DNA of 32,000 bases from Actinopolymorphaceae bacterium (GCA_036564245.1 DATCKU010000056.1:21392-53391), one strand, 5' to 3'; shown: positions 3,149 through 29,866, counted from the first letter of the stretch. The notes: generated by a model from the sequence alone, not told the origin. Made by a program: numbers and translations.

Positions 3149-3808
3149 TCACGGCATCTGCGACCGGATCCACCGCTCGAGGGCCGGCCCGGACTCGAAG
3201 CTCGTGATCAGCGCGTAGCGCGGCTCGGGACCCGGGTGGTACACCGCGTGCCAGAGCCGCTCGGTGTCCACCACGAACTGAGCGTTGCGCGGCAACGGGA
3301 TGCGGCGCTCGGTCGACGGATCGTCCTTGCGCTCCCGCAGCACCATGAAACTGTCCGGGTCGTCGGTGAGGTTGAGCCACGCTCTGACCACCCAGCCCTC
3401 GCCGTCGGGGTTGAGTCGGTTGTTGTCGTCCTGATGCAGGAAGCGGTTCTGCACTTCCTCGAGGCTGTTCGACGGATTGAGCTTGATGATCCTCACCCGG
3501 CCGAACCGGGCGCCCACCTGCTCCACCCAGCGCCGCAGGGTCGGCGCCTTCTGAGCATTGTCGGTCCACAGGCCGTCTTTGTCGGGCTTGCCGTGCTCCC
3601 AAAATCCTCGTGGGTCGTCCGAGCCGTCGCCAGAGGCGAGGACGGCGAAATTGGTGTCCCCGCCAGATTTCCAGTCGAGGTAGCTCAGTGACTCCCACTC
3701 CGCGGCCGGAATTGTCTGCTCAAACGACTTGAGGATGACGAACCCATGGGGCTCGAGCAGCTTGAGTCTGCGATGTGTCATGGAAAGTGCAACCCCCGAA
3801 ATGACCAT
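3149..3808 (-). CDS. Hypothetical protein; tentative cupin / Asp-Asn beta-hydroxylase-like 2-His-1-carboxylate fold
   Basis: 219-aa ORF with good high-GC codon pattern. Pattern LNPSNS..FLHQDD...RAWLNLTD...FVVDTERLWHAVYH resembles the HxD...H beta-barrel layout of AspH-like oxygenases (weak, from memory). Alternative start is ATG at 3779 (MTHRRL). Confidence 0.6.
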   Translation of the reverse strand: MVISGVALSMTHRRLKLLEPHGFVILKSFEQTIPAAEWESLSYLDWKSGGDTNFAVLASGDGSDDPRGFWEHGKPDKDGLWTDNAQKAPTLRRWVEQVGARFGRVRIIKLNPSNSLEEVQNRFLHQDDNNRLNPDGEGWVVRAWLNLTDDPDSFMVLRERKDDPSTERRIPLPRNAQFVVDTERLWHAVYHPGPEPRYALITSFESGPALERWIRSQMP

Positions 3809-3818
3809 GTGTCGTACG
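3793..3818 (+). repeat. Copy A of dispersed motif (CCCCCGAAATGACCATGTGTCGTACG; core 3800..3811)
   Basis: Exact match to core AATGACCAYGTK. It overlaps, antisense, the candidate ATG (3808) of the cupin-like gene. Confidence 0.8.
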
Positions 3819-4024
3819 CGCCGTGCCCCTGGTTACACGCGTCGAAAGACAGGGGCCGTACGCCGATGGCGTATCAGTCGGGGGCTAGATCCCCGGCTCG
3901 TCGAGCCATGACGCCGCCCGGAGCAGGTGAACCTGCTACACACGATCATGCGTATGCATCGATACGCGCCACTGGCCTACCAAAGGCACTAAAGGGGGTA
4001 TGCCTGGCTTGAGCCATTCCCGAT

Positions 4025-4093
4025 GGAACGTACCGCGAAACCTCCCGCGTCGTTGCCTACCTTCGCCGAACCTCCCGCGGCGTTGCGTACCTT
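4025..4093. repeat. Imperfect direct repeats with ~31-nt period (GAA(A)CCTCCCGCGKCGTTGCSTACCTT)
   Basis: 4037..4063 and 4068..4093 agree at 24 of 26 aligned positions with one 1-nt indel. A partial third unit (GGAACGTACC) lies at 4025..4034. Confidence 0.7.
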
Positions 4094-4098
4094 TCCGA

Positions 4099-4156
4099 GG
4101 CGTCTAGGACCCGCAAAGAGGTCAATGGTCGACTGAACGTGGTCATTTACAGGGGG
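4099..4156 (-). repeat. Copy F of dispersed element (core on minus strand = plus 4136..4147), abutting the response-regulator stop codon
   Basis: Minus strand reads TGA|CCCCCTGTAAATGACCACGTTCAGTCGACC... It also shares GGCGTCTAGGAC (4099..4110) and GTCGAC with the element at 28183..28278. Confidence 0.75.
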
Positions 4157-4828
4157 TCACTTTCGGGGGCGGGAGACGAGGCGGTAGCCGATGCCGCGGA
4201 CCGTCTCGATCCGTTCCGGGCCGATCTTGCGGCGTAGATAACGGACGTAGACATCGACGACGTTCGAGCCGGGGTCGAAGTCGTAGCCCCACACGTGCGA
4301 AAGCAGCTGTTCCCGGCTGAGCACCTCGTCCGGATGGCGGAGCAACAGCTCGGCGAGCAGGAACTCCCTGGTGGTGAGCTCCACCTGACGCCCGGCGACG
4401 TACGCCTTACGAGTACGAAGATCCAGCGCAATGTCGCCATGCCGCACGATCGTGGTGACCTGGGCTCGCACGGACCGGAGCCGAAGCCGGATCCGGGCCA
4501 GCAACTCCTCGAACCGAAAGGGTTTTCTCATGTAGTCGTCAGCGCCGCCATCCAATCCCGCCACCGTGTCCTCTACGGAATCGCGTGCGGTGAGGACGAC
4601 GATCGGAATGGAGTTCCGGGACTGGCGAAGTCGCCGCAGGACGTCGAAACCGTCGACGTCGGGAAGTCCGAGGTCGAGGACCATGAGGTCGTAGTCACCG
4701 GTCGAGGCCTGGCGGATCGCGGACTCCCCGTCCGGCACCGTGGTGCTCGAGTAGCCGTGTGCGCGAAGGCCTTTCTCGATGAAGCCGGAGACACCGACCT
4801 CGTCTTCTGCGATGAGGATGTTGCTCAT
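4157..4828 (-). CDS. OmpR/PhoB-family response regulator
   Basis: MSNILIAEDE... receiver domain (DLMVLDLGLPDVDG, phospho-acceptor Asp context) plus a winged-helix C-terminus (...IETVRGIGYRL). Start taken at ATG 4828, not the longer track ORF. Confidence 0.95.
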   Translation of the reverse strand: MSNILIAEDEVGVSGFIEKGLRAHGYSSTTVPDGESAIRQASTGDYDLMVLDLGLPDVDGFDVLRRLRQSRNSIPIVVLTARDSVEDTVAGLDGGADDYMRKPFRFEELLARIRLRLRSVRAQVTTIVRHGDIALDLRTRKAYVAGRQVELTTREFLLAELLLRHPDEVLSREQLLSHVWGYDFDPGSNVVDVYVRYLRRKIGPERIETVRGIGYRLVSRPRK

Positions 4829-4944
4829 CCTCGTACCTCTCTCTCCGCGGCGATACCGGTCACTCTTGCCGAGTCTCGTTCCCCGTCCGTCGGCACAAAA
4901 CACCGGAACGCAATCAGGCGTTTCGCCCAACCCCGCCACTCACC

Positions 4945-6177: not shown

Positions 6178-6229
6178 CGCGGGGTCGGACGACGACACAC
6201 CTGCAGGCGGCGGACCAGGACAGGCGACC

Positions 6230-7835: not shown

Positions 7836-8309
7836 ATGAAACTCACCGACGAGCAGTTTCGCAGCCTCTTTCTTTTCCGCTATGCGCTACGGCGCTTCCT
7901 CTTGCGTAGTGCCCAAAGCGCCGCGCAGGTCGGGCTCACGCCGCAACAACACCAGCTGCTGCTGATCCTGCGGGCCTATCCCGGACCCACTCCGCCCAGC
8001 ATCCGTGAGGTGGCGGACTATCTGCTGGTGCGCCACCACAGCGCGGTCGAGCTCGTCTCCCGTGTCGAGGCGATGGGGTTCGTACGCCGGCAACTCGACC
8101 CGCGAGACCACCGGATCGTCCGCCTGGAGCTCACCGAACGCGGTCGCCGCTGCCTGGACGACATGGCACCCACGCACCTGCAGGAGCTCCAGGACGTTTC
8201 CTCCGCGCTCGGCATCAGTGAGGAGGGAATTCACGAGATCGCAGAACGTTACCTTCGGGCGAATCTTGGTGACATTGCCACCATCACGGCCGATCTCCGC
8301 CTAGGCTGA
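7836..8309 (+). CDS. MarR-family transcriptional regulator
   Basis: 157 aa. Winged-HTH pattern LTPQQHQLLLIL...SIREVADYLLVRHHSAVELVSRVEAMGFVRRQLDPRDHRIVRLELTERG. Confidence 0.9.
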   Translation: MKLTDEQFRSLFLFRYALRRFLLRSAQSAAQVGLTPQQHQLLLILRAYPGPTPPSIREVADYLLVRHHSAVELVSRVEAMGFVRRQLDPRDHRIVRLELTERGRRCLDDMAPTHLQELQDVSSALGISEEGIHEIAERYLRANLGDIATITADLRLG

Positions 8310-8423
8310 GGGATAGCTCGGAACCCGATCCTTTTTGAAGCGTCGGGGATGGATCTTGGGACGCGAGTGCTCGGGTGGTTCTCGACGGCCGCAGGACTAC
8401 CGAGCAGCGCGGGGAGGCCAGCC

Positions 8424-9398
8424 ATGGGCGCATCTTCGCCGCGACCCGCAGACCGCGGTGGTGGCGGCTACCGGCGACCGCTCGCCGGAGGCTGGGATGG
8501 TTCTGCCCTGCGCCGCGCCCTCCCTGGCGCCCATGCGGGCGGTGACGTCGGGCGCGCACCCATGGTCGACGATCCACTGAACAAGGCTCGCGGGGAGAAC
8601 TTCCCGGTCGCCCTCCGGTTGTTGCCGGAGCGAACCCGACGCGACCTCCAAGCCATCTACCGGTTCGCCCGCCACGTCGACGACATCGGCGACGACACCA
8701 CGAGGTCGGTGCCCGAGAAGCTGCGTACGCTCGACGCGCTGGCCGCTGACGTCCGCGGGCTCTACGACGGGTCGCGGACGCCGGCCGACCCGATCGTCGC
8801 GGCGCTGGCGTCCCCGATCGCTCGCCGTCGCATGCCGGCCCACGCGTTCCTCCGGCTCATCGAGGCCAACCGGCGTGACCAGCACGTCGTGCGCTACCAG
8901 ACGTTCGACGACCTGCTCGACTACTGCCGGCTGTCCGCCAACCCGGTCGGCGAGCTCGTCCTGTGCGTCTTCGGCCGCGCCACGCCGGAGCGCATCGAGC
9001 TCTCCGACCGGATCTGCACAGCGCTGCAGCTCATCGAGCACTGGCAGGACATCGGCGAAGACTACCGCCGCGGCCGCGTGTACCTGCCGCAGGAAGACAT
9101 GGCGAGCTTCGGCGTCGCCGAGTCCGACCTTGCCAGACAGGAGGCGAGCCCCGCGCTCCGCGCGCTGATCGCATTCGAGACCGAGCGGGCCGAAGCGTTC
9201 CTGCACGCTGGCACACCCTTGCTCTCCGGACTCTCAGGCTGGGCGCGGATCGCGGTCTCGGGCTATCTCGCCGGCGGGCGGGCAGCCTGCCGAGCACTGC
9301 GGCGGAGCGAGTACGACCCGCTGCGACGCGTACCCAAACCGACGTCCCCCCAGATCGCGGCCGCATGGTTGAGCGGTGCACTCAAGGGATGGGCATGA
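8424..9398 (+). CDS. hpnC: Hydroxysqualene synthase HpnC (squalene/phytoene synthase family)
   Basis: ENFPVALRLLP...IYRFARHVDDIGDD motif set. ATG 8424 has a GGGGAGG SD 6 nt upstream; alternative start at 8562. The stop overlaps the hpnD start (ATGA). Confidence 0.85.
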   Translation: MGASSPRPADRGGGGYRRPLAGGWDGSALRRALPGAHAGGDVGRAPMVDDPLNKARGENFPVALRLLPERTRRDLQAIYRFARHVDDIGDDTTRSVPEKLRTLDALAADVRGLYDGSRTPADPIVAALASPIARRRMPAHAFLRLIEANRRDQHVVRYQTFDDLLDYCRLSANPVGELVLCVFGRATPERIELSDRICTALQLIEHWQDIGEDYRRGRVYLPQEDMASFGVAESDLARQEASPALRALIAFETERAEAFLHAGTPLLSGLSGWARIAVSGYLAGGRAACRALRRSEYDPLRRVPKPTSPQIAAAWLSGALKGWA

Positions 9399-10426
9399 GC
9401 GACGAGACCAGGATGACTGCGAAAGCCACCACGTGGGGTAGCCACCGTGGCATCAGCCCGAGCGTGGTCGACCGAGCCTACAAGGAGTGCGAGGCGATCA
9501 CGCGACGTGAGGCACGGAACTTCTCGTACGGCATCAGGCTGCTGCCCACCCCGAAGCGCCGCGCGCTCTCCGCCATCTACGCGATGGCGCGCCGCATCGA
9601 CGACATCGGTGACGGTGAGCTCGACGAGGACGAGAAGCTACGCCGACTCGCCGCCGTGCGGGAGCAGATCCGCGCCATCGAGAAGGACACCGACCACACC
9701 GATCCGGTGCTCGTGGCTCTGGCCCATGCAGCGCGGACGTTCCCCATCCCGCTGGCAGCGTTCGAGGAGCTCATCGACGGCTGCGAGATGGACGTACGCG
9801 GTCGGACGTACGACACGTTCGCCGAGCTCGTGGAGTACGCCCGCTGCGTCGCCGGCTCGATCGGCCGGCTGTCGCTGGGAGTGTTCGTGGGCCCGGGGGC
9901 CGGGACCCGGAGGAGCACGAGCGGTGGTTCGGGAGTCGTCGGCGGGATCGACACCGGCAGCGGTCCGAACGGTCCGGCAGAGGACGGGATGCCCGCCGAC
10001 CCCAGCGGCGAGCCCGAGCAGCTCGCCGACACACTCGGCATCGCGTTGCAGCTCACCAACATCCTGCGCGACTTACGCGAGGATCGCCGACGCGGCCGGA
10101 TCTACCTGCCACGTGAGGACCTGAAGCGGTTCGACTGCTCGCTGGACTTGAACGGCGACGGTGACCTGGCGTTCGATCCGGGGTTCGCTGCGCTGGTGCG
10201 CTTCGAGGCCGATCGGGCACACCAGTGGTACGACGCCGGACTTCGCCTGCTGCCGCTGCTCGACCGGCGCAGTCGGGCGTGCACGGCGGCGATGGCGGGG
10301 ATCTACCGCCGCCTGCTCGAGCAGATCTGGGTCGACCCACACCGGTGTCGGCGGACCCGGATCTCGCTGTCCGGCCGGCAGAAGGTGGCTGTCGCGATGC
10401 GTGCGATCGTCTGGGGCAAGGCATGA
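9395..10426 (+). CDS. hpnD: Presqualene diphosphate synthase HpnD (squalene/phytoene synthase family)
   Basis: ARNFSYGIRLLPTPKRRALSAIYAMARRIDDIGDG and LQLTNILRDLREDRRRGRIYLP motifs. ATGA overlap with hpnC; alternative ATG at 9389. Confidence 0.85.
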   Translation: MSDETRMTAKATTWGSHRGISPSVVDRAYKECEAITRREARNFSYGIRLLPTPKRRALSAIYAMARRIDDIGDGELDEDEKLRRLAAVREQIRAIEKDTDHTDPVLVALAHAARTFPIPLAAFEELIDGCEMDVRGRTYDTFAELVEYARCVAGSIGRLSLGVFVGPGAGTRRSTSGGSGVVGGIDTGSGPNGPAEDGMPADPSGEPEQLADTLGIALQLTNILRDLREDRRRGRIYLPREDLKRFDCSLDLNGDGDLAFDPGFAALVRFEADRAHQWYDAGLRLLPLLDRRSRACTAAMAGIYRRLLEQIWVDPHRCRRTRISLSGRQKVAVAMRAIVWGKA

Positions 10427-11883
10427 AGGATCTGGCGGGGATCGATGTCGTGGTGGTCGGCGGCGGCCTGGCGGGAATCTCGGCCGCATGCGCCCTCGCC
10501 GACCGTGGTGCGCGGGTCCGCTTGCTGGAGGCGCGGCCGCAGCTCGGCGGCGCGACGTACTCCTTCATCCGTGGCGAGCTCACGGTCGACACCGGCCAGC
10601 ACGTCTTCCTGCGGTGTTACAGCGCCTACCGCGGCCTGCTCGAACGGTTGGGCGTCACCGACCTCGCCCCGTTGCAGGCCCGCTTCGCCATTCCCGTGCT
10701 GGTCCCGCGGGCGGGATCAGGTCACGAGGTGACGTGGCTGCGGCGTGGGCCGGGCCCGGCACCCCTGCACCTCGCCGGTTCGCTCGCCCGCTACCACCCG
10801 TTGCGGCCTGTCGACCGGCTCCGGCTCGCCCCCGCCGCGGTCGCGCTTCGCAGCGTCCGCTTGGACGACCCGACGGTCGACGAGACGAGCTTCGGTGACT
10901 GGCTCCGCCGTCACGGTCAGAGCACGGCAGCCATCGAACGCCTCTGGGCCCTCATCACGGTCGCCGCCTTGAACCTGCATCCGGACGAGGCGTCGCTCGC
11001 CCTTGCCGCGCGGGTGTTCCAGACCGCACTCCTCACCGACCCCACCGCGGCGGACATCGGAGTCCCGGCGGTGTCGCTCCGGGAGCTGCACGCCGAGCCG
11101 GCCATGCGCCACCTGCGCCAGTTGGGCGTCGACGTGCGCGTCAAGAGCAAGGTGACAGCTGTTACGCAGGAACCAGACGATGCGGCGTCGGATCGCAACC
11201 CCGGCTTCGTCGTCCGCCTGAGCGACGGCGAGCTGCGAGCCGACGCCGTGGTGGTGGCGGTTCCACACCGCGCTGCGGCCTCACTCGTCCCCGCCACTGC
11301 AGCGCCAGATCGCGACGCCTGGAAAGGACTGGGCTCGTCGCCCATTGTCAACGTCCACCTGCGCTACGACCGCACCGTGATGCCGAACGAGCTGCCGTTC
11401 GTCGCGTGCGTGGACTCCCCCGCGCAGTGGATCTTCAACCGCAGCGCTTCGGCCGGACGGCACGACGGGGGTGCCGGGCAGTATCTTGTTGTCTCGGTTT
11501 CGGCAGCCCATGACGAGGTCGCGACTCCTGCCGAAGAGTTGCGGACGACAATCATGACGGCCGTGTCCCAGATCTTCCCAGACGCGCACGCTGCGCGCGT
11601 GCTCGATGCATTCGTCACCCGAGAACCCCACGCCACGTTTCGCCAGGCACCTGGTACCGCACGCCTGCGTCCATCAGCACGCACGGCGCTGCCGGGGCTG
11701 GTGCTCGCCGGCGCGTGGACCAACACCGGCTGGCCCGACACCATGGAGGGCGCGGTCCGCAGTGGGCTCGCCGCCGCCGCCGCGATCACGCACCCACCAA
11801 GCGGCAACTGCTCGGTCGCCGGCCATCAACCGCTCGCGAGGTCGGTCATGACGACAGCAGGCCGGAAGGCGGTGGGCCGATGA
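10423..11883 (+). CDS. hpnE: Hydroxysqualene dehydroxylase HpnE (FAD-dependent amine-oxidase/desaturase family)
   Basis: N-terminal dinucleotide fold DVVVVGGGLAGISAACALADRGARVRLLEARPQLGG. Position between hpnD and shc. ATGA overlaps on both sides. Confidence 0.85.
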   Translation: MKDLAGIDVVVVGGGLAGISAACALADRGARVRLLEARPQLGGATYSFIRGELTVDTGQHVFLRCYSAYRGLLERLGVTDLAPLQARFAIPVLVPRAGSGHEVTWLRRGPGPAPLHLAGSLARYHPLRPVDRLRLAPAAVALRSVRLDDPTVDETSFGDWLRRHGQSTAAIERLWALITVAALNLHPDEASLALAARVFQTALLTDPTAADIGVPAVSLRELHAEPAMRHLRQLGVDVRVKSKVTAVTQEPDDAASDRNPGFVVRLSDGELRADAVVVAVPHRAAASLVPATAAPDRDAWKGLGSSPIVNVHLRYDRTVMPNELPFVACVDSPAQWIFNRSASAGRHDGGAGQYLVVSVSAAHDEVATPAEELRTTIMTAVSQIFPDAHAARVLDAFVTREPHATFRQAPGTARLRPSARTALPGLVLAGAWTNTGWPDTMEGAVRSGLAAAAAITHPPSGNCSVAGHQPLARSVMTTAGRKAVGR

Positions 11884-12902
11884 CCGCCGCCACGTCTCCC
11901 CTTCGAATCGACACGTTGCGCCTCGTCGATCCGGCGCTTCGCGACGCGATCGACCGGCTGGACGGGCCCACCCGTTTCGCCTGCGGATACCACCTCGGCT
12001 TCTGGGATGCCTCCGGGCGCCCGAACAACTCACGAGGTCATCGAGGCAAGGCCATCCGCGCCACACTCGCCCTGCTCTCGGCCGCAGCCGCCGGCGCGCC
12101 ACCGGCCGCGGGCATTCCTGCCGCGGTCGCCTGCGAGCTCGTGCACAACTTCTCGTTGCTGCACGACGACGTCATCGACCGCGACACCGAACGCCGACAT
12201 CGGCCGACGGTCTGGGCGCGGTTCGGGCTGCCCGATGCGATCCTGTCCGGCGACGCGCTCCTCGCCCTTGCGTACGAAGTGCTCGCCGAGGCGCCCTCAC
12301 CGCACGTCGCAGCTGCGGTCCGCAAGATCAGCACGACCGTGCGCCGACTCATCGCAGGCCAAGCAGCCGACGTCTCCTTCGAGAAGCGCGACGACGTGAC
12401 GCTCACCGAATGCCTCACGATGGCCTCGAACAAGACCGGCGCCCTGCTCGCGTGCTCCGCCTCGATCGGCGCGCTGCTCGCCGGCGCGCCCGCGTCGGTC
12501 TGCAGCGGCCTGTCGGAGTACGGTGACCACCTGGGTATGGCGTTCCAGCTCACCGACGACCTGCTCGGGATCTGGGGCGACCCGGCACGCACCGGCAAGC
12601 CCGTCCTGTCAGATCTGCGGGCCCGCAAGAAGTCCCTGCCGGTCGTGGTGGCGCTCAACTCGACGCACGAGGCAGGCAAGAAGCTGCGCGAGCTCTACGC
12701 CAAGCCGGGTCCGCTGGACGAGGACGAGCTCGCCTTGGCCGCCCGTCTCGTCGAGGAGGCCGGTGGCCGGACCTGGACGGAGGCGGAGGCCGACCGACAT
12801 CTCGCCGACAGTCTGGAGGTGTTGCGGACTCTAAAGCTGCATCCGGAAGTGCACAGCGAGCTTGTCGCCGTTGCCCATCAGCTGAGGGGGCGTGACCACT
12901 GA
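11880..12902 (+). CDS. Polyprenyl (farnesyl/geranylgeranyl) diphosphate synthase
   Basis: First Asp-rich motif LLHDDVIDRD and second motif FQLTDDLLGIWGD. ATGA overlap with hpnE, TGATG overlap with shc. Confidence 0.9.
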   Translation: MTAATSPLRIDTLRLVDPALRDAIDRLDGPTRFACGYHLGFWDASGRPNNSRGHRGKAIRATLALLSAAAAGAPPAAGIPAAVACELVHNFSLLHDDVIDRDTERRHRPTVWARFGLPDAILSGDALLALAYEVLAEAPSPHVAAAVRKISTTVRRLIAGQAADVSFEKRDDVTLTECLTMASNKTGALLACSASIGALLAGAPASVCSGLSEYGDHLGMAFQLTDDLLGIWGDPARTGKPVLSDLRARKKSLPVVVALNSTHEAGKKLRELYAKPGPLDEDELALAARLVEEAGGRTWTEAEADRHLADSLEVLRTLKLHPEVHSELVAVAHQLRGRDH

Positions 12903-14836
12903 TGACGAGAAGCACGGTCACCCAGCGTGCGAACGTCGCGCTCGACCGCGCCGTCGAGCACCTGCTGAGCCTGCAAGACGCGGCAGGGTGGTGGAAGGGC
13001 GAGCTGGAGACCAACGTCACCATGGACGCCGAAGACCTGTTGATGCGACAGTTCCTCGGCGTCCGTACGAAAGAGCAGACCGAGGAGTCGGCCCGCTGGA
13101 TCCGAAGCCAGCAGCGCGCCGACGGGTCCTGGGCGAACTTCTACGGCGGCCCGGGCGACCTCTCGACCACCGTCGAGGCCTACGTCGCACTGAAGCTTGC
13201 TGGAGACGACCCCGACGCGCCTCACATGGCGTTGGCGCGGGAGTTCATCCGGCTCAGTGGCGGCTTGGAGCGGTCTCGCGTCTTCACCCGCATCTGGCTC
13301 GCCCTCTTCGGGGAATGGAGCTGGGACGACGTCCCCGCACTGCCGCCGGAGCTCATCTTCCTGCCGAACTGGATGCCGTTCAACGTCTACGACTGGGCGT
13401 GCTGGGCGCGGCAGACAATCGTCCCCCTCACCATCCTCGGAGCGCTGCGACCCCAGCGCGAGCTCGGTGTGTCGACTGCAGAGCTGCGCACCGGTGCTCG
13501 TCAACCGGGCCCCGGCAACCCCTTCACGAGCTGGAAGAACGCGTTCGGCTGGATGGACCGGATCCTGCACAAGTACGAACGCCGACCGATCGGTCCGCTG
13601 CGCCGCGAGGCGCTGCGGCGGGCCGCCGAGTGGATCATCGCGCGACAGGAAAAGGACGGTTGCTGGGGAGGGATCCAGCCACCCTGGGTGTACTCGCTCA
13701 TGGCCTTGCACGCCCTCGGCTACCCGGTGGACCACCCGGTGCTCGCCTCCGGTCTCGCCGGCTGGGAACGGTTCACGATCCGCGAGGACGGACCTGACGG
13801 TCCGGTGCGCCGGATCGAGGCCTGCCAGTCACCGGTGTGGGACACGGCGCTCTCGCTGGTGGCACTGGGCGACGCCGGCCTGTCAGGTGACGAGCCGGCG
13901 ATGGTCAAGGCCCGTGACTGGCTCTTGGGCGAGGAGGTCCGGGTACGCGGTGACTATGCCGTCCGTCGACCGAACGCACCGGCTGGCGGATGGGCGTTCG
14001 AGTTCGACAACGACCTCTACCCCGACACCGACGACACGGCGGAGGTGGTGCTGGGGCTACGCAAGGCCGCCCCGAGCCCGGAGGTCGACGCCGCGGTGCG
14101 TCGGGCCATCGCGTGGTTGCGCGCCATGCAGTCGAAGAACGGCGCATGGGGTGCCTTCGACGCGGACAACACGCGTGAGCTCGCCTACGAGCTTCCGTTC
14201 TGCGATTTCGGCGCGGTCATCGACCCGCCGAGCGCTGACGTGACCGCGCACATCGTCGAGATGTTCGCCCACGAAGGCCTGGCCGACGATCCGGCCGTGC
14301 GGCGCGCGGTCCAGTGGCTGCTGAAGGAACAGGAGCCCGACGGGTCGTGGTTCGGTCGCTGGGGTGCCAACTACATCTATGGAACCGGTGCCGTCGTGCC
14401 GGCGCTGGTGGCGGCTGGCGTGTCGCCCCAGCATCGGGCCATCGTGCGCGCGGTTCAATGGCTCGAGGAGCACCAGAACGCCGACGGCGGCTGGGGCGAG
14501 GACATGCGGTCGTACGTCGATCCGGCCTACCGAGGTGTCGGCACGTCGACCGCGTCCCAGACGGCCTGGGCTCTGCTGGCCCTCCACGCGGCGGGCGAGG
14601 GAACGTCGGAGGCCGCGATGCGCGGGATGTGCTGGCTCGTGGACTCGCAGCGTGAGGACGGTACGTGGGACGAGCCGCAGTTCACCGGTACCGGATTCCC
14701 CGGTGACTTCTACATCAACTACCACCTCTATCGCTTGGTGTTCCCGATCACCGCGCTCGGCCGGTTGCTTGGTCGTAGCACCGGCGAGGGCAAAGCGAGA
14801 CACTCGGTACGGAGCTTGGACGGCCGGCAAGCATGA
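12902..14836 (+). CDS. shc: Squalene-hopene cyclase
   Basis: 644 aa. Catalytic DxDDTA (PDTDDTAEVV) and multiple QW repeats (e.g. QQRADGSWANFYG, QSKNGAWGAF, EQEPDGSWFGRWG, HQNADGGWGE, QREDGTWDE). Confidence 0.97.
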   Translation: MTRSTVTQRANVALDRAVEHLLSLQDAAGWWKGELETNVTMDAEDLLMRQFLGVRTKEQTEESARWIRSQQRADGSWANFYGGPGDLSTTVEAYVALKLAGDDPDAPHMALAREFIRLSGGLERSRVFTRIWLALFGEWSWDDVPALPPELIFLPNWMPFNVYDWACWARQTIVPLTILGALRPQRELGVSTAELRTGARQPGPGNPFTSWKNAFGWMDRILHKYERRPIGPLRREALRRAAEWIIARQEKDGCWGGIQPPWVYSLMALHALGYPVDHPVLASGLAGWERFTIREDGPDGPVRRIEACQSPVWDTALSLVALGDAGLSGDEPAMVKARDWLLGEEVRVRGDYAVRRPNAPAGGWAFEFDNDLYPDTDDTAEVVLGLRKAAPSPEVDAAVRRAIAWLRAMQSKNGAWGAFDADNTRELAYELPFCDFGAVIDPPSADVTAHIVEMFAHEGLADDPAVRRAVQWLLKEQEPDGSWFGRWGANYIYGTGAVVPALVAAGVSPQHRAIVRAVQWLEEHQNADGGWGEDMRSYVDPAYRGVGTSTASQTAWALLALHAAGEGTSEAAMRGMCWLVDSQREDGTWDEPQFTGTGFPGDFYINYHLYRLVFPITALGRLLGRSTGEGKARHSVRSLDGRQA

Positions 14837-14879
14837 TCATCACGTTGGACGACAGGGAGCACGGTCGAGGTAAGGGACG

Positions 14880-16499
14880 ATGATGCCGGAGGCAGGGCGC
14901 TACGTGGTGTGTGCGCCGACCCATGCCGAGGCCAATCGGCTGCGCCGAGGCCTGCGGACAGGCGTTCTCGTGCGCACGGGTGTGGGGCCGGCTCAGGCCG
15001 AGCGCGCCCGTGACTCGGGCACGCTGCGCCAGCAAGCGGGCCTTCCCGTGAGCGGAGTCGTCGTGGCAGGCATTGCCGGCGGTCTACGGCCCGATCTGCG
15101 ACCCGGCGATGTGGTCGTCGCGACCGAGGTGAGACGGACGGACGGCACATCCGTACCGTGTCCCAGCGCAACCCTGCTGGCGTCGACGCTGCGGCGGTCC
15201 TTCGCTGACAACCAGACCAACCACACCGTCCACACGGGAGCCATCATCAGCGCGGACCGGATCGTGACCGGCCGCACGCGTACCCAGCTGGCACAGACGG
15301 GGGCACTCGCCGTCGACATGGAGTCGGCCTGGCTCCTGGCCAAGGACTCTCCGAACGGTGCTCCGCCCGAGCCTGCGGCACCAGCCGTGGCATGCGTACG
15401 CGTGATCGCGGATCCGGCGACCGGTCGCCTGTTGCGTACGGCCACGCTGAGCCACGTGCTCACGGCCATCAGCAGGCTCACCGAGCTCGGACCAGCACTG
15501 GACAGCTGGGGTGCCGCCCTGCACCCCTCGCGCAAGGTACTGTTGCCGGCGCCCCGGTCGTTCTGCGCAGGCGTCGAGCGCGCGATCGACATCGTAGAAC
15601 GCGTGCTGGATCAGCGCGGAGCGCCGGTCTTCGTTCGCAAGCAGATCGTGCACAACGCGCATGTCGTCCGTGAGCTCGAGGAACGCGGTGCCGTGTTCGT
15701 CGACGAGCTCGACGAGGTGCCCGACGGCGCGACCGTGGTGTTCTCCGCACACGGTGTCGCGCCAGACGTGCGACGGCATGCCGAGGAACGCGGTCTGGCC
15801 GTCGTGGACGCCACGTGCCCCCTCGTGGCGAAGGTGCACAGCGAGGCGCGCCGCTTCGCCGACCGCGGCGACACGGTGCTCTTCATCGGGCACGCCGGTC
15901 ACGAGGAGACCGAAGGCACGCTGGGGGAACGGCCGGAAGCAACGATGCTCGTGGAGAACATCGAGGACGCGCGCCGGGTGCAGGTGCCAGATCCGGACCG
16001 GGTCTCCTACCTCGTGCAGACCACACTGGCCGTCGACGAGGTGGCAGAGATCGTGTCGGTGTTGCAGGAACGCTTCCCGCGCCTGGCCGCGCCCGGTTCC
16101 GACGACATCTGCTACGCCACGACCAACCGGCAACGCGCGCTTCGCTCGGTGGTGGACGAGGCCGACCTGGTGCTCGTCGTCGGCTCGGCGAACTCGTCGA
16201 ACTCCAACCGGCTGGTGGAGCTGGCCGAGCGGCTCGGCACTCCGGCGTACCTCATCGACGACGCCTCCGACATCGACCTCGACTGGCTCGCAGGAATCGA
16301 CACGGTTGCGGTGACTGCCGGCGCTTCGGCCCCCACCGAGCTCGTCGACGACGTGGTCGGCGCACTCGGCGGACTCGGTCCGATCACCGTGGAAGAGCGC
16401 GAGGTCACCCGAGAAGACATCAGTTTCACGCTCCCCAAGGAGGTCCGCTCGACCTCGTCGATGCGAGAGCGTGCTGCGAGAAAGGCTCGCGCCCAATGA
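14880..16499 (+). CDS. hpnG-ispH: Fusion protein: HpnG-like nucleosidase (PNP/UDP family) N-domain + IspH/LytB HMBPP reductase C-domain
   Basis: One uninterrupted 539-aa frame. The N part (~aa 1-220) has VVAGIAGGL...GDVVVATEV...AVDMESAW, typical of the MTA/SAH-nucleosidase-like HpnG family. The C part, from ~nt 15540, has IspH hallmarks: [42 protein letters not shown] (three Fe-S Cys ligands). Confidence 0.85.
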
Positions 16500-17503
16500 G
16501 TATGCCCTTGCGACAAAGCCTGCGTATCGCGCGGTACCTCTTGGCCCAGCGCCTCAAGCGGCGGGAGAAGTTTCCGCTGCTCGTGGAGCTCGAGCCGTTG
16601 TTCGCCTGCAACCTTTCCTGCGCTGGGTGCGGGAAGATCCAGCATCCAGCGTCCGTGCTGCGCCAGCGGATGCCGGTCGAGCAGGCGGTGGCCGCCATCG
16701 AGGAGTGCGGCGCCCCGATGGTGTCGATCGCCGGCGGCGAGCCCTTGATGCATCCGGAGATCGACCGGATGGTCGATGAGCTCGTGAAGCGCAAGAAGTA
16801 CGTCTTCTTGTGCACCAACGCGGTGCTGCTCCGCAAATGGTGGGACCGGTTCTCCTTCAAGCCCTCGCGGTTCCTCGCCTTCGCCGTGCACATCGACGGT
16901 CTGCGCGAACGCCACGACGAGTCGGTGTGCCAGGAAGGTGTCTTCGACGAGGCGGTCGCTGCGGTGCGTTTCCTGCAGGAGAAGGGATTCCGCGTCACGA
17001 CGAACACGACGTTCTTCTCCCACGACAGCCCGCAGAGCGTCATCGACGTGCTGAACTTCCTCAACGATGAGCTGCGCGTCGACCAGATGATGATCTCTCC
17101 TGCGTACGCCTACGAGAAGGCACCCGACCAGGACCACTTCCTCGGCGTGACGCAGACCCGCGAGCTGTTCCGCAAGGCGTTCGCCAACGGCAACCGCAAG
17201 CGGTGGCGGCTCAACCATTCACCGCTCTTCCTCGACTTCCTGGAAGGAAAGGTCGACTTCCCCTGCACCGCGTGGGGCATCCCGTCCTACTCGATATTCG
17301 GCTGGCAGCGTCCCTGCTACCTCATGAGCGACGGATACGCCAAGACCTACAAGGAGCTGGTCGAGGAGACCGACTGGTCACGCTACGGTCGCGGTCGGGA
17401 TCCGCGTTGTGCCAACTGCATGGCCCACTGCGGTTACGAGCCGACGGCGGTCCTCGCCACGATGAGTTCTCTGCGCCAGTCCCTGCGGGCCCTCACCGGC
17501 TGA
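16496..17503 (+). CDS. hpnH: Adenosylhopane synthase HpnH (radical SAM)
   Basis: [16 protein letters not shown]... with radical-SAM CNLSCAGCG and a conserved C-terminus. ATGA overlap with the preceding gene. Confidence 0.9.
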
Positions 17504-17532
17504 CCCCTCACAAAATGACCACGTTAGGTGGG
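17504..17532 (+). repeat. Copy B of dispersed motif (CCCCTCACAAAATGACCACGTTAGGTGGG; core 17514..17525), starting at the base after the hpnH stop
   Basis: Exact core match. Same C-rich prefix as the copies at 4156 and 28278. Confidence 0.8.
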
Positions 17533-17607
17533 CCAGTTGCCTCTGAGAGTGGCCTACATCCTGCGGTGGGCTACTCGTTGCCGCGGAAAGTACATGCGGG
17601 TACGCCG

Positions 17608-17691
17608 TGAAAGGTCCGTGAGCTCCCGGCAGAGGTACATCGCGATCTGCCGGGCGGTCACGAGGACCCGGCTTCGGCTCGAGCCGCACTC
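17608..17691 (-). pseudogene. dnaA-derived fragment (DnaA domain IV helix-turn-helix segment), non-functional remnant
   Basis: Minus-strand frame reads [28 protein letters not shown]. From memory this is essentially the conserved actinobacterial DnaA C-terminal DNA-binding segment (...[29 protein letters not shown]...). The flanks are Arg-rich nonsense and the frame stops 17 codons later. Confidence 0.7.
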
Positions 17692-17887
17692 GTTGTGCGC
17701 CGCGGATGCGCGGGTACGCCACGGCAAACGCACGACGAACGCGCACGCCCGGCCACGGAAGCCTCGTGGCATGCCTACGGCGTCAACCGGCCGACATCGT
17801 GGGAGCCACGGTCCCCCGGCTCCACCAGGCGATGTCAGTCCGCCCCAGCTCGACGGCCACGGACCTGAGCGGCGAGGACGCCGTCCT

Positions 17888-18661
17888 TCACGTGAGCTGT
17901 CGAGCCGCCAGGCGGGCGTAGAGCGTAGGCGCCAGCGCCTGCAGCCCGACCGCGACGCGTAGCCACCGCGGCAGGATGAGCTCGGCGCGATCCCGCTCGA
18001 TCGCACGAATCAACGCCCCCGCGACGCGCTCTGGCGGGAGCGGTCGCGGAAACCGGCGCGCGTACGGCGCTCCTCGCCGTTCGAAGAACTCCGTGTCGAC
18101 GATCCCGGGCGCGACGATGCTGACCCCGACGCCAGTGGTCGCGAGCTCCTCTCGGAGGCTTCGCGCGTACGCATGCAGACCGGCCTTCGTCGCTGCGTAA
18201 CCGGACTCGTTCGGAACGCCAAGCAACGCCGCGATCGACGTCACGAAGCCGATGTGGCCGCCGCCCTTCGCCAGCATGCCGGGTATCACCGCCCGACTGA
18301 GCGCCATGGGCGCCCGGAGGTTGACGGCACTCATGCGGGCAAAGGTCGCGTCGTCATAGACGGTGGCAGGCGCCACATGGCCCACGCCCGCGTTGTTGAC
18401 GAGCAGGTCCGGCGCTGGGTCCAGCTCGGCGAGCTCACGGGCGAATTCGTCCGTACGAGCTGGGTCTTCAAGATCCACGACCGCCGACTGACCACTCGTA
18501 CGCCGGGCAACCTCGGCGAGCCGGGCGGGATCCCGGCCAACCAGCAACAAGCGGCAACCGCGTCGTGCGAACGCGAACGCCAGCGCCCGGCCGATGCCAC
18601 TCGAAGCGCCGGTGATGACGACGAACGACCCTACAACGCGCACCGGCGACAACCCTGCCAC
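17888..18661 (-). CDS. SDR-family oxidoreductase (short-chain dehydrogenase/reductase)
   Basis: TGASSGIGRA cofactor motif, NNAG, catalytic YAATKAG. Confidence 0.9.
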   Translation of the reverse strand: MAGLSPVRVVGSFVVITGASSGIGRALAFAFARRGCRLLLVGRDPARLAEVARRTSGQSAVVDLEDPARTDEFARELAELDPAPDLLVNNAGVGHVAPATVYDDATFARMSAVNLRAPMALSRAVIPGMLAKGGGHIGFVTSIAALLGVPNESGYAATKAGLHAYARSLREELATTGVGVSIVAPGIVDTEFFERRGAPYARRFPRPLPPERVAGALIRAIERDRAELILPRWLRVAVGLQALAPTLYARLAARQLT

Positions 18662-22339: not shown

Positions 22340-22351
22340 CACGTGGTCATT
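22340..22351 (-). repeat. Copy G of dispersed motif core (minus strand AATGACCACGTG), 12 nt after the permease stop
   Basis: Exact core match in the 71-bp convergent gap. A 6-bp hairpin GCGGAG-CC-CTCCGC lies at 22304..22317. Confidence 0.75.
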
Positions 22352-22363
22352 GCCAGTGGAGCG

Positions 22364-25640: not shown

Positions 25641-26263
25641 CTGCCGTCATCACGAGGTACGCACGAATGCGGTAACGATTCCACATGTGCCGGCTAACCG
25701 TACTCACAGGGGATATGACGGTCAACAGCTTCATGCCATGACACGTGGCACAGGGGCATCGACGACGACGCTCGACCCACGTGACGGGGCCCAGTGTGCG
25801 CTTCGCACCAAGCGCGACGCCGACCTCGGACGACAGCTCGAAAGCCTGGTCGGCCGCACACTGCCTGCCAGCACGACGTCGGCTCTGCGCACACCACGAC
25901 TGGAGCAGTCGCGGCATGGCGCGACGGCGATGACGAGGTGGCGGTGACGGGACGACTGAGGTGGCCCTTACGACGGCCGGTCACGTGACGTGACCTGTAT
26001 CCCGCATAGCGGGATCAACTCTGTCGGCCGCTGGTTCGCGTGGTCTCCGATACGGCCACGGTGCGACCGCCGGATCCGGGGTGACCCGAGATACGCCGTC
26101 GGCGTCAAAAGCTCGTGTGACACAAAAAGGCGAAGGCACCGTACACAGCGAGGTAACACACGAAGAACCAGGCGGTGCTGAGTGCGGTGCCTCCGCGATT
26201 GACTACTGGCTACTCGTGGATCGTCTTGCTTCGCTACGGATGAACGGACAGATGTCGCGCCGG

Positions 26264-27345: not shown

Positions 27346-27823
27346 TTCTCATCTCCCCTGGTGCCCACGGCAATGTCGCGTTGTGATGGTTCTCGATCAG
27401 CGGGTCTCGGCGGGATCGTGACGGGCGAGGCGGCGCCGGGTCGAGCTCGAAAGTCTGACGGTCGATGTGTGGCTCATTGTGCCCTAACGGAACGGAATCG
27501 ACACGGGCGCCTCATGACGTGCATCCGGAGTGGGAGCCATCACGGCACGTCGACGGACCAGGAACGGCAGCAGCTGACACTTCGTCGGCGTCAGGACCCC
27601 GCGAACCTGATCTTCAGCTGGGCGTACGTCCTCACCGCATCCCACCTGATGGTCCGACAAATCAGGTGAGAATTCTTACCGCAAGTGCTTGCGGATGGGA
27701 CATATGAGGTACTACGTTCTGTTTCATCCTGTCAACGCTGAGTAGCCCCCGGGCCCCCGAACCGCTACCCCGTTGCAGGCACAAACAAACACAACGGTGT
27801 GTGACAGTGACGGGAGGACCCGC

Positions 27824-28165
27824 ATGATTTGGGCTGAGCTGGAAGCCATCGCCGATCGCCGTCTGGCGGAACGGCGCATCGCCCAGGAGCAGCACATCCG
27901 CAAACTTCACGAACGTCTCGTCTCCGATGGCTACCACGCCCAGGTCCTCGACCAACCACGTGAGGGATGGCAGGTCCGGGTGCAGTATCCACCGTCAACC
28001 AGTGTCTGGGTGACCGTACGCTGCGTCATCACCGAGGGGCGGGCGACGTTCGAGTGGTGCCGGTGGCTGCCGTGGACCTGCTCTGCGAACGACATCGACA
28101 CAGCTGTCGCGTTCCTGCGGGACCTGCTCGGCGCGCCATCGCCCCGCCCCGCCGTCGCCGGTTGA
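27824..28165 (+). CDS. Hypothetical protein (113 aa), no family recognised
   Basis: ATG 27824 preceded by GGGAGGA SD. Coding-like composition (MIWAELEAIADRRLAERRIAQEQHIRKLHERLVSDGYHAQVLD...). Confidence 0.6.
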   Translation: MIWAELEAIADRRLAERRIAQEQHIRKLHERLVSDGYHAQVLDQPREGWQVRVQYPPSTSVWVTVRCVITEGRATFEWCRWLPWTCSANDIDTAVAFLRDLLGAPSPRPAVAG

Positions 28166-28182
28166 CCGTCCATCCCACCCGG

Positions 28183-28278
28183 CCCAAATGACCATGTGCA
28201 CTACGGCCGTCTGACCTGCACTACGTGTCGACACGTGTTGTACGTCCTAGACGCCTAGTGCACATCGTCATGTGAGGG
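28183..28278. repeat. 96-bp palindromic doublet (copies C and H of the dispersed motif in inverted orientation); REPIN-like
   Basis: Arm 1 is CCCAAATGACCATGTGCACTACG (28183..28205). Arm 2 is CCTAGTGCACATCGTCATGTGAGGG (28254..28278), an imperfect reverse complement. The centre holds the perfect 14-bp palindrome ACGTGTCGACACGT (28223..28236). TGCACTACG is repeated at 28197 and 28217. Confidence 0.85.
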
Positions 28279-28286
28279 CCGCGCAC

Positions 28287-28700
28287 TCAGCCGCGAGCGA
28301 TGAGACATTCGTACGACTGACCCTTGTTGCGGGGTCGGCAGCCGGCCGCAACCACCTTCCACCCGGTCTCGTACCGTCCGACGAACACCGTGTCGCCGGT
28401 GAAGGCGACCTGCGCCTGGTCTCCAGCGACCCGCACTTCGCGCAGCTTGCCCAGGCGGGCGACGTCTTGGGTGAGCACAGCACGGGCACAGGGCAGCTTC
28501 ACCGCCTTTTCCAGGCCCGCCACCGTCTCCCGCGCAAGCCAGGCGCATGCGCGCGCTCCGTTCCTCTGGGCCACCGCGGCATGAAAGGCGCGGGCCGCTT
28601 CGGTTGCCGCCTCCCGTCGCTCCGCGGCATCACTACAGCCGACGAGCGATGTCAGCAACGCGACAGCCGTCACCACGACCGGGACCGGGCGTACCTTCAT
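28287..28700 (-). CDS. Small secreted lipoprotein (137 aa), function unknown
   Basis: MKVRPVPVVVTAVALLTSLVGCSD, a signal peptide with lipobox LVGC. The longer track ORF (to 28994) is an upstream read-through. Confidence 0.7.
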   Translation of the reverse strand: MKVRPVPVVVTAVALLTSLVGCSDAAERREAATEAARAFHAAVAQRNGARACAWLARETVAGLEKAVKLPCARAVLTQDVARLGKLREVRVAGDQAQVAFTGDTVFVGRYETGWKVVAAGCRPRNKGQSYECLIARG

Positions 28701-28941
28701 GGCTCGCAGGAGACGCCTCTCCTTTCCGTGACAGTGGGTCATTCGCCGTAGATACCCAGCCCGCAAGATCACGAATACTGTCGCGCAGGCGGAGCCGCGG
28801 TCGTGGGAGTGGGCGCGGCAGCCTGGCGCTGCACAGAGCTGCGTCAAACCGGGCTCGCGACCGCCTTCCGTGGCGCTGCAGAAGCCTTGTGACGTCAGCC
28901 CAGGCCTCGCAACCGAAGCCGTTGACCCTGCCGAGGCGTTT

Positions 28942-28979
28942 GTGGCCCTCGCATGGCGCCAAGGCCGTGCGAGGGCCAC
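28942..28979 (-). terminator. Strong hairpin downstream of the PhyH gene (12-bp perfect stem, 14-nt loop)
   Basis: GTGGCCCTCGCA (28942..28953) and TGCGAGGGCCAC (28968..28979) are exact reverse complements. There is no U-tract. Confidence 0.5.
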
Positions 28980-28985
28980 GAAGGC

Positions 28986-29008
28986 TAGCTGCACATGGTC
29001 ATTCTGGG
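28986..29008 (-). repeat. Copy E of dispersed motif; the TGA inside the core is the PhyH stop codon
   Basis: Minus strand: CCCAGAATGACCATGTGCAGCTA. Core = plus 28992..29003; PhyH stop = 28999..29001. Confidence 0.8.
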
Positions 29009-29754
29009 ATGTCGGCGACGATCTTGCCGTCGCGCAGGAACGGGTCGAACGAACCCCACGGCTTCGAGCCGTCCTTGGTTTTGATGATCTCGCTGGAGTA
29101 CTGCGCCAAGTAGACCCGGCGCAACCGGTCAGTCAGGTTGGGCCCACTCCGATGCAGCACGACGCTGGAGAACACCACGATCGTTCCCGCGGGAGCCGTC
29201 ATCGGAATCCCCGGATCCGAACCGAAGTAGCCCACCAGGTCGTTCACCTCAGGGTCAGGGATGTGCTTGACGTACGAGCGAATACCGGAGCGGGAGTACG
29301 GCAGCAGATACACCGAGCCGTTCTCCTCGGTCACGTCGTCGAGCGCGATCCAGCACGTGAGGTAGGGCTCGTGATCCTCGTGGACGTAACCGGAGTCCTG
29401 ATGCCAGGCGAAGCTCGTGTCGGGGTCCGCCGCCTTGATGACGTACTGCTCCCAGAACAAGTAGGCCGTGTCCCCCAACGTCGCCCGGCAGATCTCTGCC
29501 ATCGTGTCGCTGAAGAGGAACTTCCGCAGCTCCGGCCGATCCTTGTAGATCATGTTGGAGAAATAGCGCTTGCCCCGTGCGTTGATGCCGATCCGATCGA
29601 CACCGGCCTCGTCGAATGCCTTGTCGAGTTTGTCGATCGAGTATTGAGCACCGCTCCGAAGCAGCTCGAGCTGCTCGTCGGTGAGCACCTTCTCGAGAAC
29701 GAAGTACCCCTCGTTGCGGTACTGCTCGCGCATCTCGTCGGTGACCAGGCTCAT
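28999..29754 (-). CDS. Phytanoyl-CoA dioxygenase (PhyH) family Fe(II)/2-oxoglutarate oxygenase
   Basis: MSLVTDEMREQYRNEGYFVLEKVLTDEQL..., facial triad WHQD...LHRSGPN plus an Arg (RRVYLAQY). Start ATG 29754 chosen over the 344-aa track ORF. Confidence 0.85.
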   Translation of the reverse strand: MSLVTDEMREQYRNEGYFVLEKVLTDEQLELLRSGAQYSIDKLDKAFDEAGVDRIGINARGKRYFSNMIYKDRPELRKFLFSDTMAEICRATLGDTAYLFWEQYVIKAADPDTSFAWHQDSGYVHEDHEPYLTCWIALDDVTEENGSVYLLPYSRSGIRSYVKHIPDPEVNDLVGYFGSDPGIPMTAPAGTIVVFSSVVLHRSGPNLTDRLRRVYLAQYSSEIIKTKDGSKPWGSFDPFLRDGKIVADIPE

Positions 29755-29807
29755 GGTTGTTTCACATCCATCCAATTTCGAGCACGCCCACCAGGCCTGT
29801 CGGAGCT

Positions 29808-29866
29808 GTGACACGTGCCGACACGTGTTGCACCCCCGACGGGCGTAGTGCACATGGTCATTTGGG
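29808..29866 (-). repeat. Copy D / half-element in the PhyH-AraC divergent region
   Basis: 29844..29866 is the exact reverse complement of 28183..28205 (23/23; 28/29 when extended). 29808..29830 carries two GACACGTG units 10 nt apart, homologous to the centre of the 28183..28278 element. Confidence 0.85.

Follow-up and report, generated by a model that had tools for sequence, protein, structure and literature searches.

The window analysed here, a stretch of 32,000 nucleotides from Actinopolymorphaceae bacterium (GCA_036564245.1, DATCKU010000056.1:21392-53391), contains repeated copies of a 12-nt motif, AATGACCAYGTK, most of which lie close to the ends of protein-coding genes. The present analysis deals with this motif, with the larger repeated element of which it appears to form the 5′ end, and with the possible origin of this element. 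Independent gene calls for the window were available from the Joint Genome Institute (JGI) metagenome contig Ga0310828_1000066, found by exact-protein match. They place the PhyH gene at 28999-29754 (251 aa), not extending to 30033 as proposed in a first-pass annotation made from the sequence alone; therefore, the motif copy at 29851 falls in the divergent spacer between the AraC and PhyH genes. Similarly, the gene labelled "lipoprotein" in that annotation is a 137-aa open reading frame (ORF; 28287-28700) without family match. The G+C content of the window is 61-71%. No tRNA or tmRNA was found in the window by the corresponding scan, and no Rfam family reached its gathering score.

The motif AATGACCAYGTK has seven exact matches in the window, compared with 0.01 expected from dinucleotide-preserving shuffles, in which the largest count was 1. 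These matches are at 3800, 17514 and 28187 on the + strand and at 4136, 22340, 28992 and 29851 on the − strand, and all coordinates and strands agree with those of the first-pass annotation. If up to two mismatches are allowed, the window has 11 matches against 3.97 expected, and the site at 28261-28272 is added. This site, listed before as a degenerate copy, corresponds to the decayed right-hand inverted end of a palindromic element spanning 28183-28274. The two other sites listed as degenerate, 28733-28748 (AATGACCCACTGT) and 25738-25756 (CATGACACGTGG), are weak look-alikes with an indel.

A first alignment of the seven copies with their flanks showed that those at 28187 (+) and 29851 (−) have about 80 nt in common and that the region 28185-28274 is in itself close to a palindrome. 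When metagenomes were scanned with the 20-mer AAATGACCATGTGCACTACG, 68 further loci (496 kb) were obtained, all from the JGI series Ga03108xx/Ga03253xx, the G+C content of which is unimodal, about 67%, and matches that of the window's organism. The collection holds parts of contigs only, so that copy numbers refer to sampled loci. Taken together, the alignments indicate that AATGACCAYGTK is the 5′ head of a dispersed repeat family and not a free-standing box. Sixty non-redundant copies align without gaps (consensus CCCAAATGACCATGTGCACTACGCCTGnCGGAGGTGCAACACGTGCCGGCACGTGTTGCACCTCCGACAnGCC), with conservation bounded by position −4 on the 5′ side and by about position 68 on the 3′ side. In the major type (type 1), the short form (n = 53) is 73 nt long and comprises a CCCA lead-in (4 nt, CC(C/A)A), a 20-nt head, AATGACCATGTGCACTACG (also written CCMAAATGACCAYGTK), and an imperfect hairpin of about 23 modelled pairs around a CCGG centre. 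The full form (94 nt) continues with GTAGTGCACATGGTCATTTGGG, an inverted head, and thereby becomes a palindrome with 23-nt terminal inverted repeats and 43 modelled pairs; it was found four times (window 28183-28274 and loci L093, L111 and L115), i.e., in about 7% of the copies. In type 2, AATGACCACGTT is followed by nAGTCGGGCA… and by a different, poorly conserved body. The core GTGCA(C/A)(T/A)ACG recurs in the head, in both arms of the hairpin and in the right-hand head. Thus, the element is built of two units in direct orientation and, after them, two in inverted orientation. The head is essentially invariant and the arms differ by 10-15%, the head invariance being partly a matter of ascertainment, since the loci were fished with an exact 20-mer; for the same reason, type-2 copies are under-sampled. 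No headless hairpin was detected by nhmmer in the sampled loci.

The C-rich flank and the two sub-types described in the first-pass annotation are both borne out by the alignment; of 74 non-redundant copies, 60 have C at position −4, 66 have C at position −3 and 68 have A at position −1. The core had, however, been taken for the whole element, of which it represents only a terminal tag or inverted repeat. Moreover, the statement that single copies form no obvious hairpin is wrong for the main sub-type (...CCATGTGCACTAC), where the hairpin begins directly 3′ of the core, 18 nt inside the head-containing element.

Only two of the window's copies are type-1 elements. The full-form element (28183-28274, +) is made of the CCCAAATGACCATGTGCACTACG head, a long imperfect palindrome and a decayed inverted head (…TAGTGCACATCGTCATGTG). 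Its 45-nt arms are separated by no gap, it is recognised by nhmmer on the two strands (E = 3.6e-20 and 2e-13) and its RNA fold is predicted at −55.4 kcal/mol (z = −7.2). It occupies the convergent spacer between a 113-aa ORF on the + strand, whose stop at 28165 is 21 nt before the head, and the 137-aa ORF on the − strand, whose stop (28289-28287) precedes the inverted head by 14 nt. The short-form element (29794-29869, −; nhmmer E = 6.7e-24) has the head and the hairpin without the right-hand inverted head, with a predicted RNA fold of −42.5 kcal/mol (z = −2.6). It is found in the divergent spacer between the AraC (29943-30800, +) and PhyH (29754-28999, −) genes, where 39 nt separate its 3′ end from the downstream start codon of PhyH.

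The five other copies are heads with diverged bodies. The solo head at 28992-29007 (−; CCAGAATGACCATGTG) provides, with its TGA (29001-28999), the stop codon of PhyH, and an unrelated 12-bp hairpin (28979-28942) comes next. A type-2 head at 17510-17525 (+; ACAAAATGACCACGTT), 10 nt past the hpnH stop (17501-17503, +), opens the 384-nt hpnH-SDR spacer (17504-17888). A second type-2 head, at 4136-4151 (−), is located 9 nt past the stop of a response-regulator gene (4159-4157, −) and constitutes the left terminal inverted repeat of a composite, 3796-4151, together with the solo head at 3796-3811 (+), which is inverted relative to it. These two heads face outward, each of them CCCCC-flanked, and enclose the whole 348-nt spacer between the response-regulator gene and a 210-aa ORF; the start of this ORF at 3781, confirmed by the JGI gene call, has the head 19 nt upstream. 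Finally, a head with the variant …CCACGTG (22340-22355, −) follows by 12 nt the stop of an ABC permease gene (22366-22364, −) in a 71-nt convergent spacer shared with a Ser/Thr kinase gene (stop at 22292). The bodies of these five copies have no significant repeats elsewhere in the sampled loci and, unlike the type-1 copies, the type-2 regions of the window show no strong RNA fold. As judged from the alignments, older or diverged copies are those that keep only the head next to an unrelated or decayed body, and these five copies are of that kind.

A Pfam search of translated pieces of the five bodies retrieved only a dnaA fragment. It covers 26 codons of the C-terminal helix-turn-helix of DnaA (…SRVLVTARQIAMYLCRELTDLS…; 17608-17685, −; PF08299, E = 1.5e-8, above gathering score), is located within the hpnH-SDR spacer after the 17514 head, where no gene is called, and looks like a captured gene fragment. 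Two tandem repeats were also observed in the window. One of them (4034-4093, two copies of 30 nt, 87% identical) belongs to the head-bracketed spacer and contains a AAGGTACGCAAC-like motif that is also present after other elements; the other one is at 2908-2965 (two copies of 29 nt, 93% identical).

The adjacency to stop codons, already pointed out in the first-pass annotation, holds against the JGI gene calls. Outside the window region, genes were called on all loci with our own heuristic ORF caller, based on G+C content at third codon positions. A sense-strand gene ends at most 50 nt upstream in 46 of 76 non-redundant heads. For the short forms, the head is within 15 nt past a sense-strand stop in 29 of 53 cases, against about 2% for a random non-coding position and strand, an excess far beyond chance. 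By contrast, only 5 of the 53 have an antisense stop at most 15 nt from the tail. In convergent spacers (n = 15), the median gap is about 5 nt on the head side and about 57 nt on the tail side. Most copies come after the stops of unrelated housekeeping genes, including dapF, a murB neighbour, ggt and glycogen-debranching genes.

In 16-17 of 73-76 copies (about 21%), the TGA of the head (within AATGACC) is the stop codon of the gene, and the protein ends in …Pro-Lys-stop (CCC AAA TGA). Two proteins were checked in this respect, and in both the element-borne stop is within 1-2 codons of the homologue ends: PhyH ends in …IVADIPE*, compared with …VVAQIP* or …VVAQL* in homologues, and an FAD/ALO oxidase ends in …RRLFAPK*, compared with …DRVLGP followed by 0-10 aa. 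In these two genes, the CC(C/A) preceding the head coincides with a native proline codon; therefore, CCCA may be either a part of the element or a preferred target. A TGAC found 4-12 nt upstream of the head was considered as a further part of the element. This was rejected, as 14 of 16 copies that use the head's own TGA do not have it, and the upstream TGAC of the other copies is therefore the native stop codon. Thus, copies land at the extreme 3′ ends of genes with the head facing the gene, either a few nucleotides past the native stop or overlapping it in such a way that the head's own CCC-AAA-TGA ends the protein. Tandem duplications of the head region were observed at two loci (L063 4803-4866 and L070 9299-9344; 32 nt and 23 nt, respectively), and the 23-nt one includes the stop codon of the gene.

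The two arms of the hairpin do not covary. Paired cells amount to 73.9%, a share equalled or exceeded in 497 of 500 partner shuffles (75.4 ± 0.6%), and the covariation score is lower than the average of the shuffles. In the two variable boxes, pairing is no more frequent than expected from independent draws (16 vs. 17.6 expected and 6 vs. 9.3 expected). The same small set of alleles is found on both arms, and CGAC, CAAC and TGAC, as well as the loop variants CCGG, TCGG and CCGA, resemble C-to-T transitions. AGGT and ACCT are mutual reverse complements, and the commonest mismatch classes, AGGT/AGGT and ACCT/ACCT, correspond to those expected from the two strands of a single imperfect palindrome. 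A conserved RNA structure was therefore rejected, and the lack of covariation argues for copied inverted-repeat DNA and not for a selected RNA fold. A structured RNA or an intrinsic terminator was likewise discarded, there being no compensatory change, no T-run after the stem and no Rfam match; no sigma-70-like promoter or terminator consensus was found in the elements either. The foot of the stem is abutted by CTAC on the top strand and GTAG on the bottom strand (GTAG on the top strand of full forms). Stutter duplications of the element's own 3′ arm were seen just downstream in 4-6 of 55 short forms, compared with none in 5′ control flanks (3′ flanks of L067, L076, L103 and L115).

The host is an uncultured, compost-type lineage of the Actinopolymorphaceae, related to Thermasporomyces composti and to Actinopolymorpha species, with 87-88% identity in HpnH, and it occurs in the same metagenome samples as T. 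composti. Orthologous intergenic regions were compared, as the first-pass annotation had suggested, and neither a head nor an nhmmer profile match was detected in the DNA examined from T. composti, Actinopolymorpha rutila and another Actinopolymorphaceae metagenome-assembled genome (MAG), about 84 kb in all. The convergent hpnH-SDR spacer measures 384 nt in eight of eight sampled strains of the host species; T. composti has only 12 nt at this place and A. rutila 27 nt. A scan of a genome collection with the 17-mer AATGACCATGTGCACTA was uninformative, the matches listed being isolated chance hits in unrelated low-GC taxa. In plasmid and phage collections, blastn found no match to the 94-nt consensus. 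By the comparison with the related genomes, the family is derived and lineage-specific, not ancestral.

Within the host, copies are unevenly distributed. Eight exact heads are present in the contiguous 50 kb around the window, one of them belonging to a further type-1 copy located 3.5 kb left of the window; these heads cluster from about −3.5 kb to 29.9 kb, and none is found in the 10 kb to the right (contiguous region about −9.5 to +40.8 kb, covered by L143, L138, the window, L001 and L140). The flanks of the fished loci have roughly one additional type-1 copy per 75 kb, so that the window is locally dense; solo and type-2 heads are about 10 times denser around the window than in the flanks of the other sampled loci. 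Two side observations concern the hpnH region. At the hpnH stop of a relative MAG (HpnH 87% identical), a 17-nt unit, ATGACCAGCGGCTAGCC, is present about 3.5 times (L127/L128, about 10995-11055); this array is a tandem duplication of the last codons and stop of hpnH itself, and it includes ATGACCA but is otherwise unrelated to the head. In addition, the window carries a complete hopanoid gene cluster (7836-17503), syntenic with T. composti and Actinopolymorpha, with genes for MarR, two SQS_PSY proteins, an hpnE-like amine oxidase, a polyprenyl synthase, a squalene-hopene cyclase, a PNP_UDP_1/LytB fusion and HpnH.

All-against-all blastn of the sampled loci, about 0.55 Mb, returned only one orthologous locus pair differing by a 290-nt ABC-ATPase fragment. 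This low-GC fragment of about 290 nt (L108 8400-8660, −) corresponds to the C-terminal half of an ABC ATPase, lies directly 3′ of a type-1 element and is missing in a strain whose flanking DNA is 99% identical (L062 4780-4800). After the dnaA piece, it is the second gene fragment seen beside an element. At L063 4803-6311, two outward-facing elements bracket a 319-aa ORF in a composite-like arrangement; this is the only gene bracketed by two elements. Its product was considered as a transposase, but only an N-terminal AbiEi_4 domain is recognisable and it is not a known transposase. No direct repeat that could represent a target-site duplication was found at the four full forms under any choice of boundaries. 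The hpnH empty site from other genera is too diverged to decide on this point.

We favour the idea, with a probability of about one half, that AATGACCAYGTK is the invariant 5′ head of lineage-specific, small, non-autonomous DNA elements that were copied and dispersed in this uncultured Actinopolymorphaceae bacterium by a single-strand mobilisation resembling that of repetitive extragenic palindromes (REPs) and REPINs. A REP-like family placed at gene 3′ ends in the sense orientation had been proposed in the first-pass annotation, and the 68 additional loci, the 73-94 nt hairpin element, the 29 of 53 heads near stops and the absence from sister genera all go in this direction. By analogy with REPs and REPINs, the element would probably be mobilised in trans, as single-stranded hairpin DNA, by an enzyme of the HUH/Y1 type, similar to TIRYT or to the REP-associated tyrosine transposases (RAYTs), that would be encoded elsewhere in the genome. 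The full forms could arise by fold-back extension of the 3′ end of the stem across the head. Single-strand, HUH-type mobilisation would be consistent with the lack of target-site duplication, with the asymmetric ends, with GTAG/CTAC at the stem foot and with the occurrence of singlets and inverted doublets. Each inserted copy would put a hairpin of −40 to −55 kcal/mol 15-40 nt downstream of a stop codon. We infer that this hairpin probably serves as a U-tract-less barrier or terminator at transcript 3′ ends, which would make such a position tolerated.

Several observations weigh against this proposal. In the approximately 0.55 Mb of host DNA, which is less than 10% of a genome, no Y1/RAYT-like gene was found with only two transposase queries (IS200 TnpA and the Escherichia coli RAYT, used in tblastn), so that the Y1 transposase of the RAYT or IS200/IS605 kind flanked by copies that the first-pass annotation had in mind was not encountered there, and it is the resemblance to REPs that stands and not membership among them. 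A single match with E = 0.07, on the opposite strand of a murB-like ORF, was treated as spurious. The all-against-all comparison of the same DNA revealed neither a multi-copy transposase nor a repeated ORF or long repeat. On its strand, GTAG comes 3′ of the stem, whereas canonical REPs have it 5′. Stems of about 23 modelled pairs, with a tag of 20 nt, also go beyond what is published for REPs (5-13 bp). No presence/absence polymorphism was seen among strains 1-2% diverged, all copies being common to them, which does not speak for current mobility. No U/T-tract follows the stem in the elements, and we only infer a terminator or stabiliser role. Finally, the terminal inverted repeats of the full forms and the 348-nt composite at 3796-4151 are equally expected of a miniature inverted-repeat transposable element (MITE) of the DDE type.

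The latter possibility is the main rival, though an unlikely one in our opinion. The 94-nt full form, with its 23-nt terminal inverted repeats, would be a classical MITE moved by the DDE transposase of a parent insertion sequence having the same ends, and short forms and solo heads would be one-ended decay or deletion products. The perfect inverted heads of the four full forms are in line with this view, as are the outward-facing heads that bracket the window's 348-nt spacer and, likewise, the 1.5-kb segment of L063. The reverse complementarity of the AGGT/AGGT and ACCT/ACCT classes of short forms also looks as if either end of a full form had been lost. However, no full form shows a target-site duplication, and short forms, about 13 times as numerous as full forms, break off at a single discrete position (about 68), which random decay would not produce. 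The strong head-to-stop polarity is unexpected of a symmetrical element, and no DDE gene with these ends was found in the 0.55 Mb. The tight sense-oriented placement past stop codons would fit a domesticated 3′-untranslated region (3′-UTR) module that is no longer mobile. Its head would be a tag recognised by a protein or an RNase, its hairpin a terminator or mRNA stabiliser, and selection on expression would keep it at gene ends. An essentially invariant head beside arms 10-15% different, and copies fixed across strains 1-2% diverged, are compatible with such a module, and the excess of G·T wobbles over A·C at the four dimorphic pairs (68 vs. 43) is compatible with use of the sense-strand RNA. 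On the other hand, base-pair covariation is absent, the hairpin has no U-tract behind it, the family is absent from every sampled sister-genus region and some copies are in 5′ regions (29794-29869 and 3796-3811). The head invariance is in part due to the 20-mer used to fish the loci, and a function would leave the spread of the copies unexplained. This second rival, which is compatible with other explanations, is also considered doubtful.

Somewhat more improbable would be an element actively targeted to translation stops, in which case an enzyme would place a cassette made of head and hairpin in the sense orientation, either at a stop codon or directly behind it, and the replacement stop CCC-AAA-TGA would keep the genes unextended. 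The elements would then represent a stop-codon-homing class of mobile DNA in Actinomycetota, unrelated to REP/RAYT or to MITEs, and breaks at the hairpin might lead to the capture of gene pieces like those of dnaA and the ABC ATPase. That the 12-mer is the binding box of a transcription-factor operator, for instance of the adjacent AraC-family protein or response regulator, can be regarded as very improbable. One copy is indeed located in the AraC/PhyH divergent spacer and another one 19 nt upstream of a gene start, and the arms behave like independent sequence-constrained half-sites. Nevertheless, most copies are past the stops of unrelated housekeeping genes, the 70-90 nt of homology between copies exceed a box and the 12-mer is not palindromic.

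Whichever explanation is retained, the element is of unusual design, its invariant tag being 20 nt long, its stem extended and its 5′ edge provided with an in-frame stop, and it is placed at gene ends with almost codon precision. REPs, REPINs and MITEs are well described in Proteobacteria and Cyanobacteria, but there is essentially no record of them in high-GC actinobacteria. Should the polarity be due to targeting, it would point to a new insertion specificity and to a mobilising enzyme behind it. If it reflects selection, the elements would offer natural 3′ hairpins without U-tract for the study of actinobacterial transcript ends, which are still debated. At a practical level, the 20-mer can serve as a species-specific metagenome marker for this uncultured Actinopolymorphaceae lineage, and gene callers should expect C-termini of the type …PK* created by the element.

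The GTAG superfamily of REPs and REPINs, with its RAYT (Y1/HUH) transposases, is described in Proteobacteria, Cyanobacteria, Chloroflexi and PVC (PMC3733652, PMC3116915), and actinobacteria are not among the phyla listed for REPs (PMC3733652). Published REPs are found downstream of genes and their termini can donate a stop codon (PMC3733652); two reports mention the downstream-of-gene bias, the stop-codon donation and the occurrence of singlets and inverted doublets (PMC3733652; PMC3337134). Like REPs and REPINs, the present family consists of short hairpin repeats of extragenic DNA that number tens to hundreds, are restricted to a lineage and occur mostly downstream of coding regions. In both cases, termini can give a stop codon, target-site duplications are absent, and singlets coexist with inverted doublets making a longer hairpin; the unpaired conserved tag beside the stem, with GTAG/CTAC at the stem foot, may be a further point in common. 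The tag is, however, of 20-23 nt here (CCCAAATGACCATGTGCACTACG) instead of 4 nt, the unit of 73-94 nt instead of 20-40 bp, and the stem has 23 modelled pairs (43 in the full form) instead of 5-13 bp. In addition, GTAG is here 3′ of the stem, inside the 20-nt conserved tag, whereas the REP tag is unpaired at the 5′ end of the palindrome; the donated stop is TGA and not TAG; and the host is an actinobacterium in which no RAYT gene was seen in the 0.55 Mb searched.

MITEs such as Correia elements in Neisseria, ERIC/IRU in enterobacteria and Nezha in cyanobacteria are also dispersed non-coding repeats (70-150 nt) able to form long hairpins; their sites are transcribed intergenic regions, where they can affect 3′ ends or the stability of mRNAs. 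Terminal inverted repeats are present in the full form of our element. Unlike them, about 93% of the copies here are devoid of one terminal repeat, no target is duplicated (Correia elements duplicate TA), the sense polarity relative to the upstream stop is strong and no parent insertion sequence is known. TIRtrons, which are terminal inverted repeat families flanking TIRYT genes (PMC3733652), and the IS200/IS605-derived PATEs are moderately abundant, have long terminal inverted repeats or subterminal hairpins, are thought to be moved by Y1 transposases and insert in an orientation-specific manner without target-site duplication. Here, by comparison, no flanked Y1 gene is seen in the 0.55 Mb searched and no conserved tetra- or pentanucleotide target is apparent beyond CC(C/A)A, which possibly belongs to the element itself. 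Among actinobacterial repeats, the MIRUs of Mycobacterium tuberculosis are intergenic, oriented with the flanking genes, and overlap the stop (and start) codons of their neighbours; the head described here also contains ATGA, an overlapping stop/start. MIRUs are, however, tandem arrays of 46-101 bp inside operons, are not hairpins and carry small ORFs overlapping stop and start. Our elements are single dispersed hairpin units, half of them in convergent spacers, where 15 of the mapped copies were counted, and TRF finds no array at them. Of the defining MIRU traits, they have the stop overlap alone. Integron attC sites were rejected, as the ends CCCAAATGACC… and …CCGACAGGCC are not R″/R′ (RYYYAAC…GTTRRRY), the copies are dispersed beside housekeeping genes, and the gene calls contain neither an array nor an integrase. 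A literature search found no description of a AATGACCAYGTK hairpin repeat family. The family seems to work like REPs and REPINs, yet with a size beyond theirs and with GTAG on the other side of the stem, and resembles MITEs only in its minority full form. Altogether, these elements look like an uncatalogued family of hairpin repeats, an actinobacterial counterpart of REP and MITE elements.

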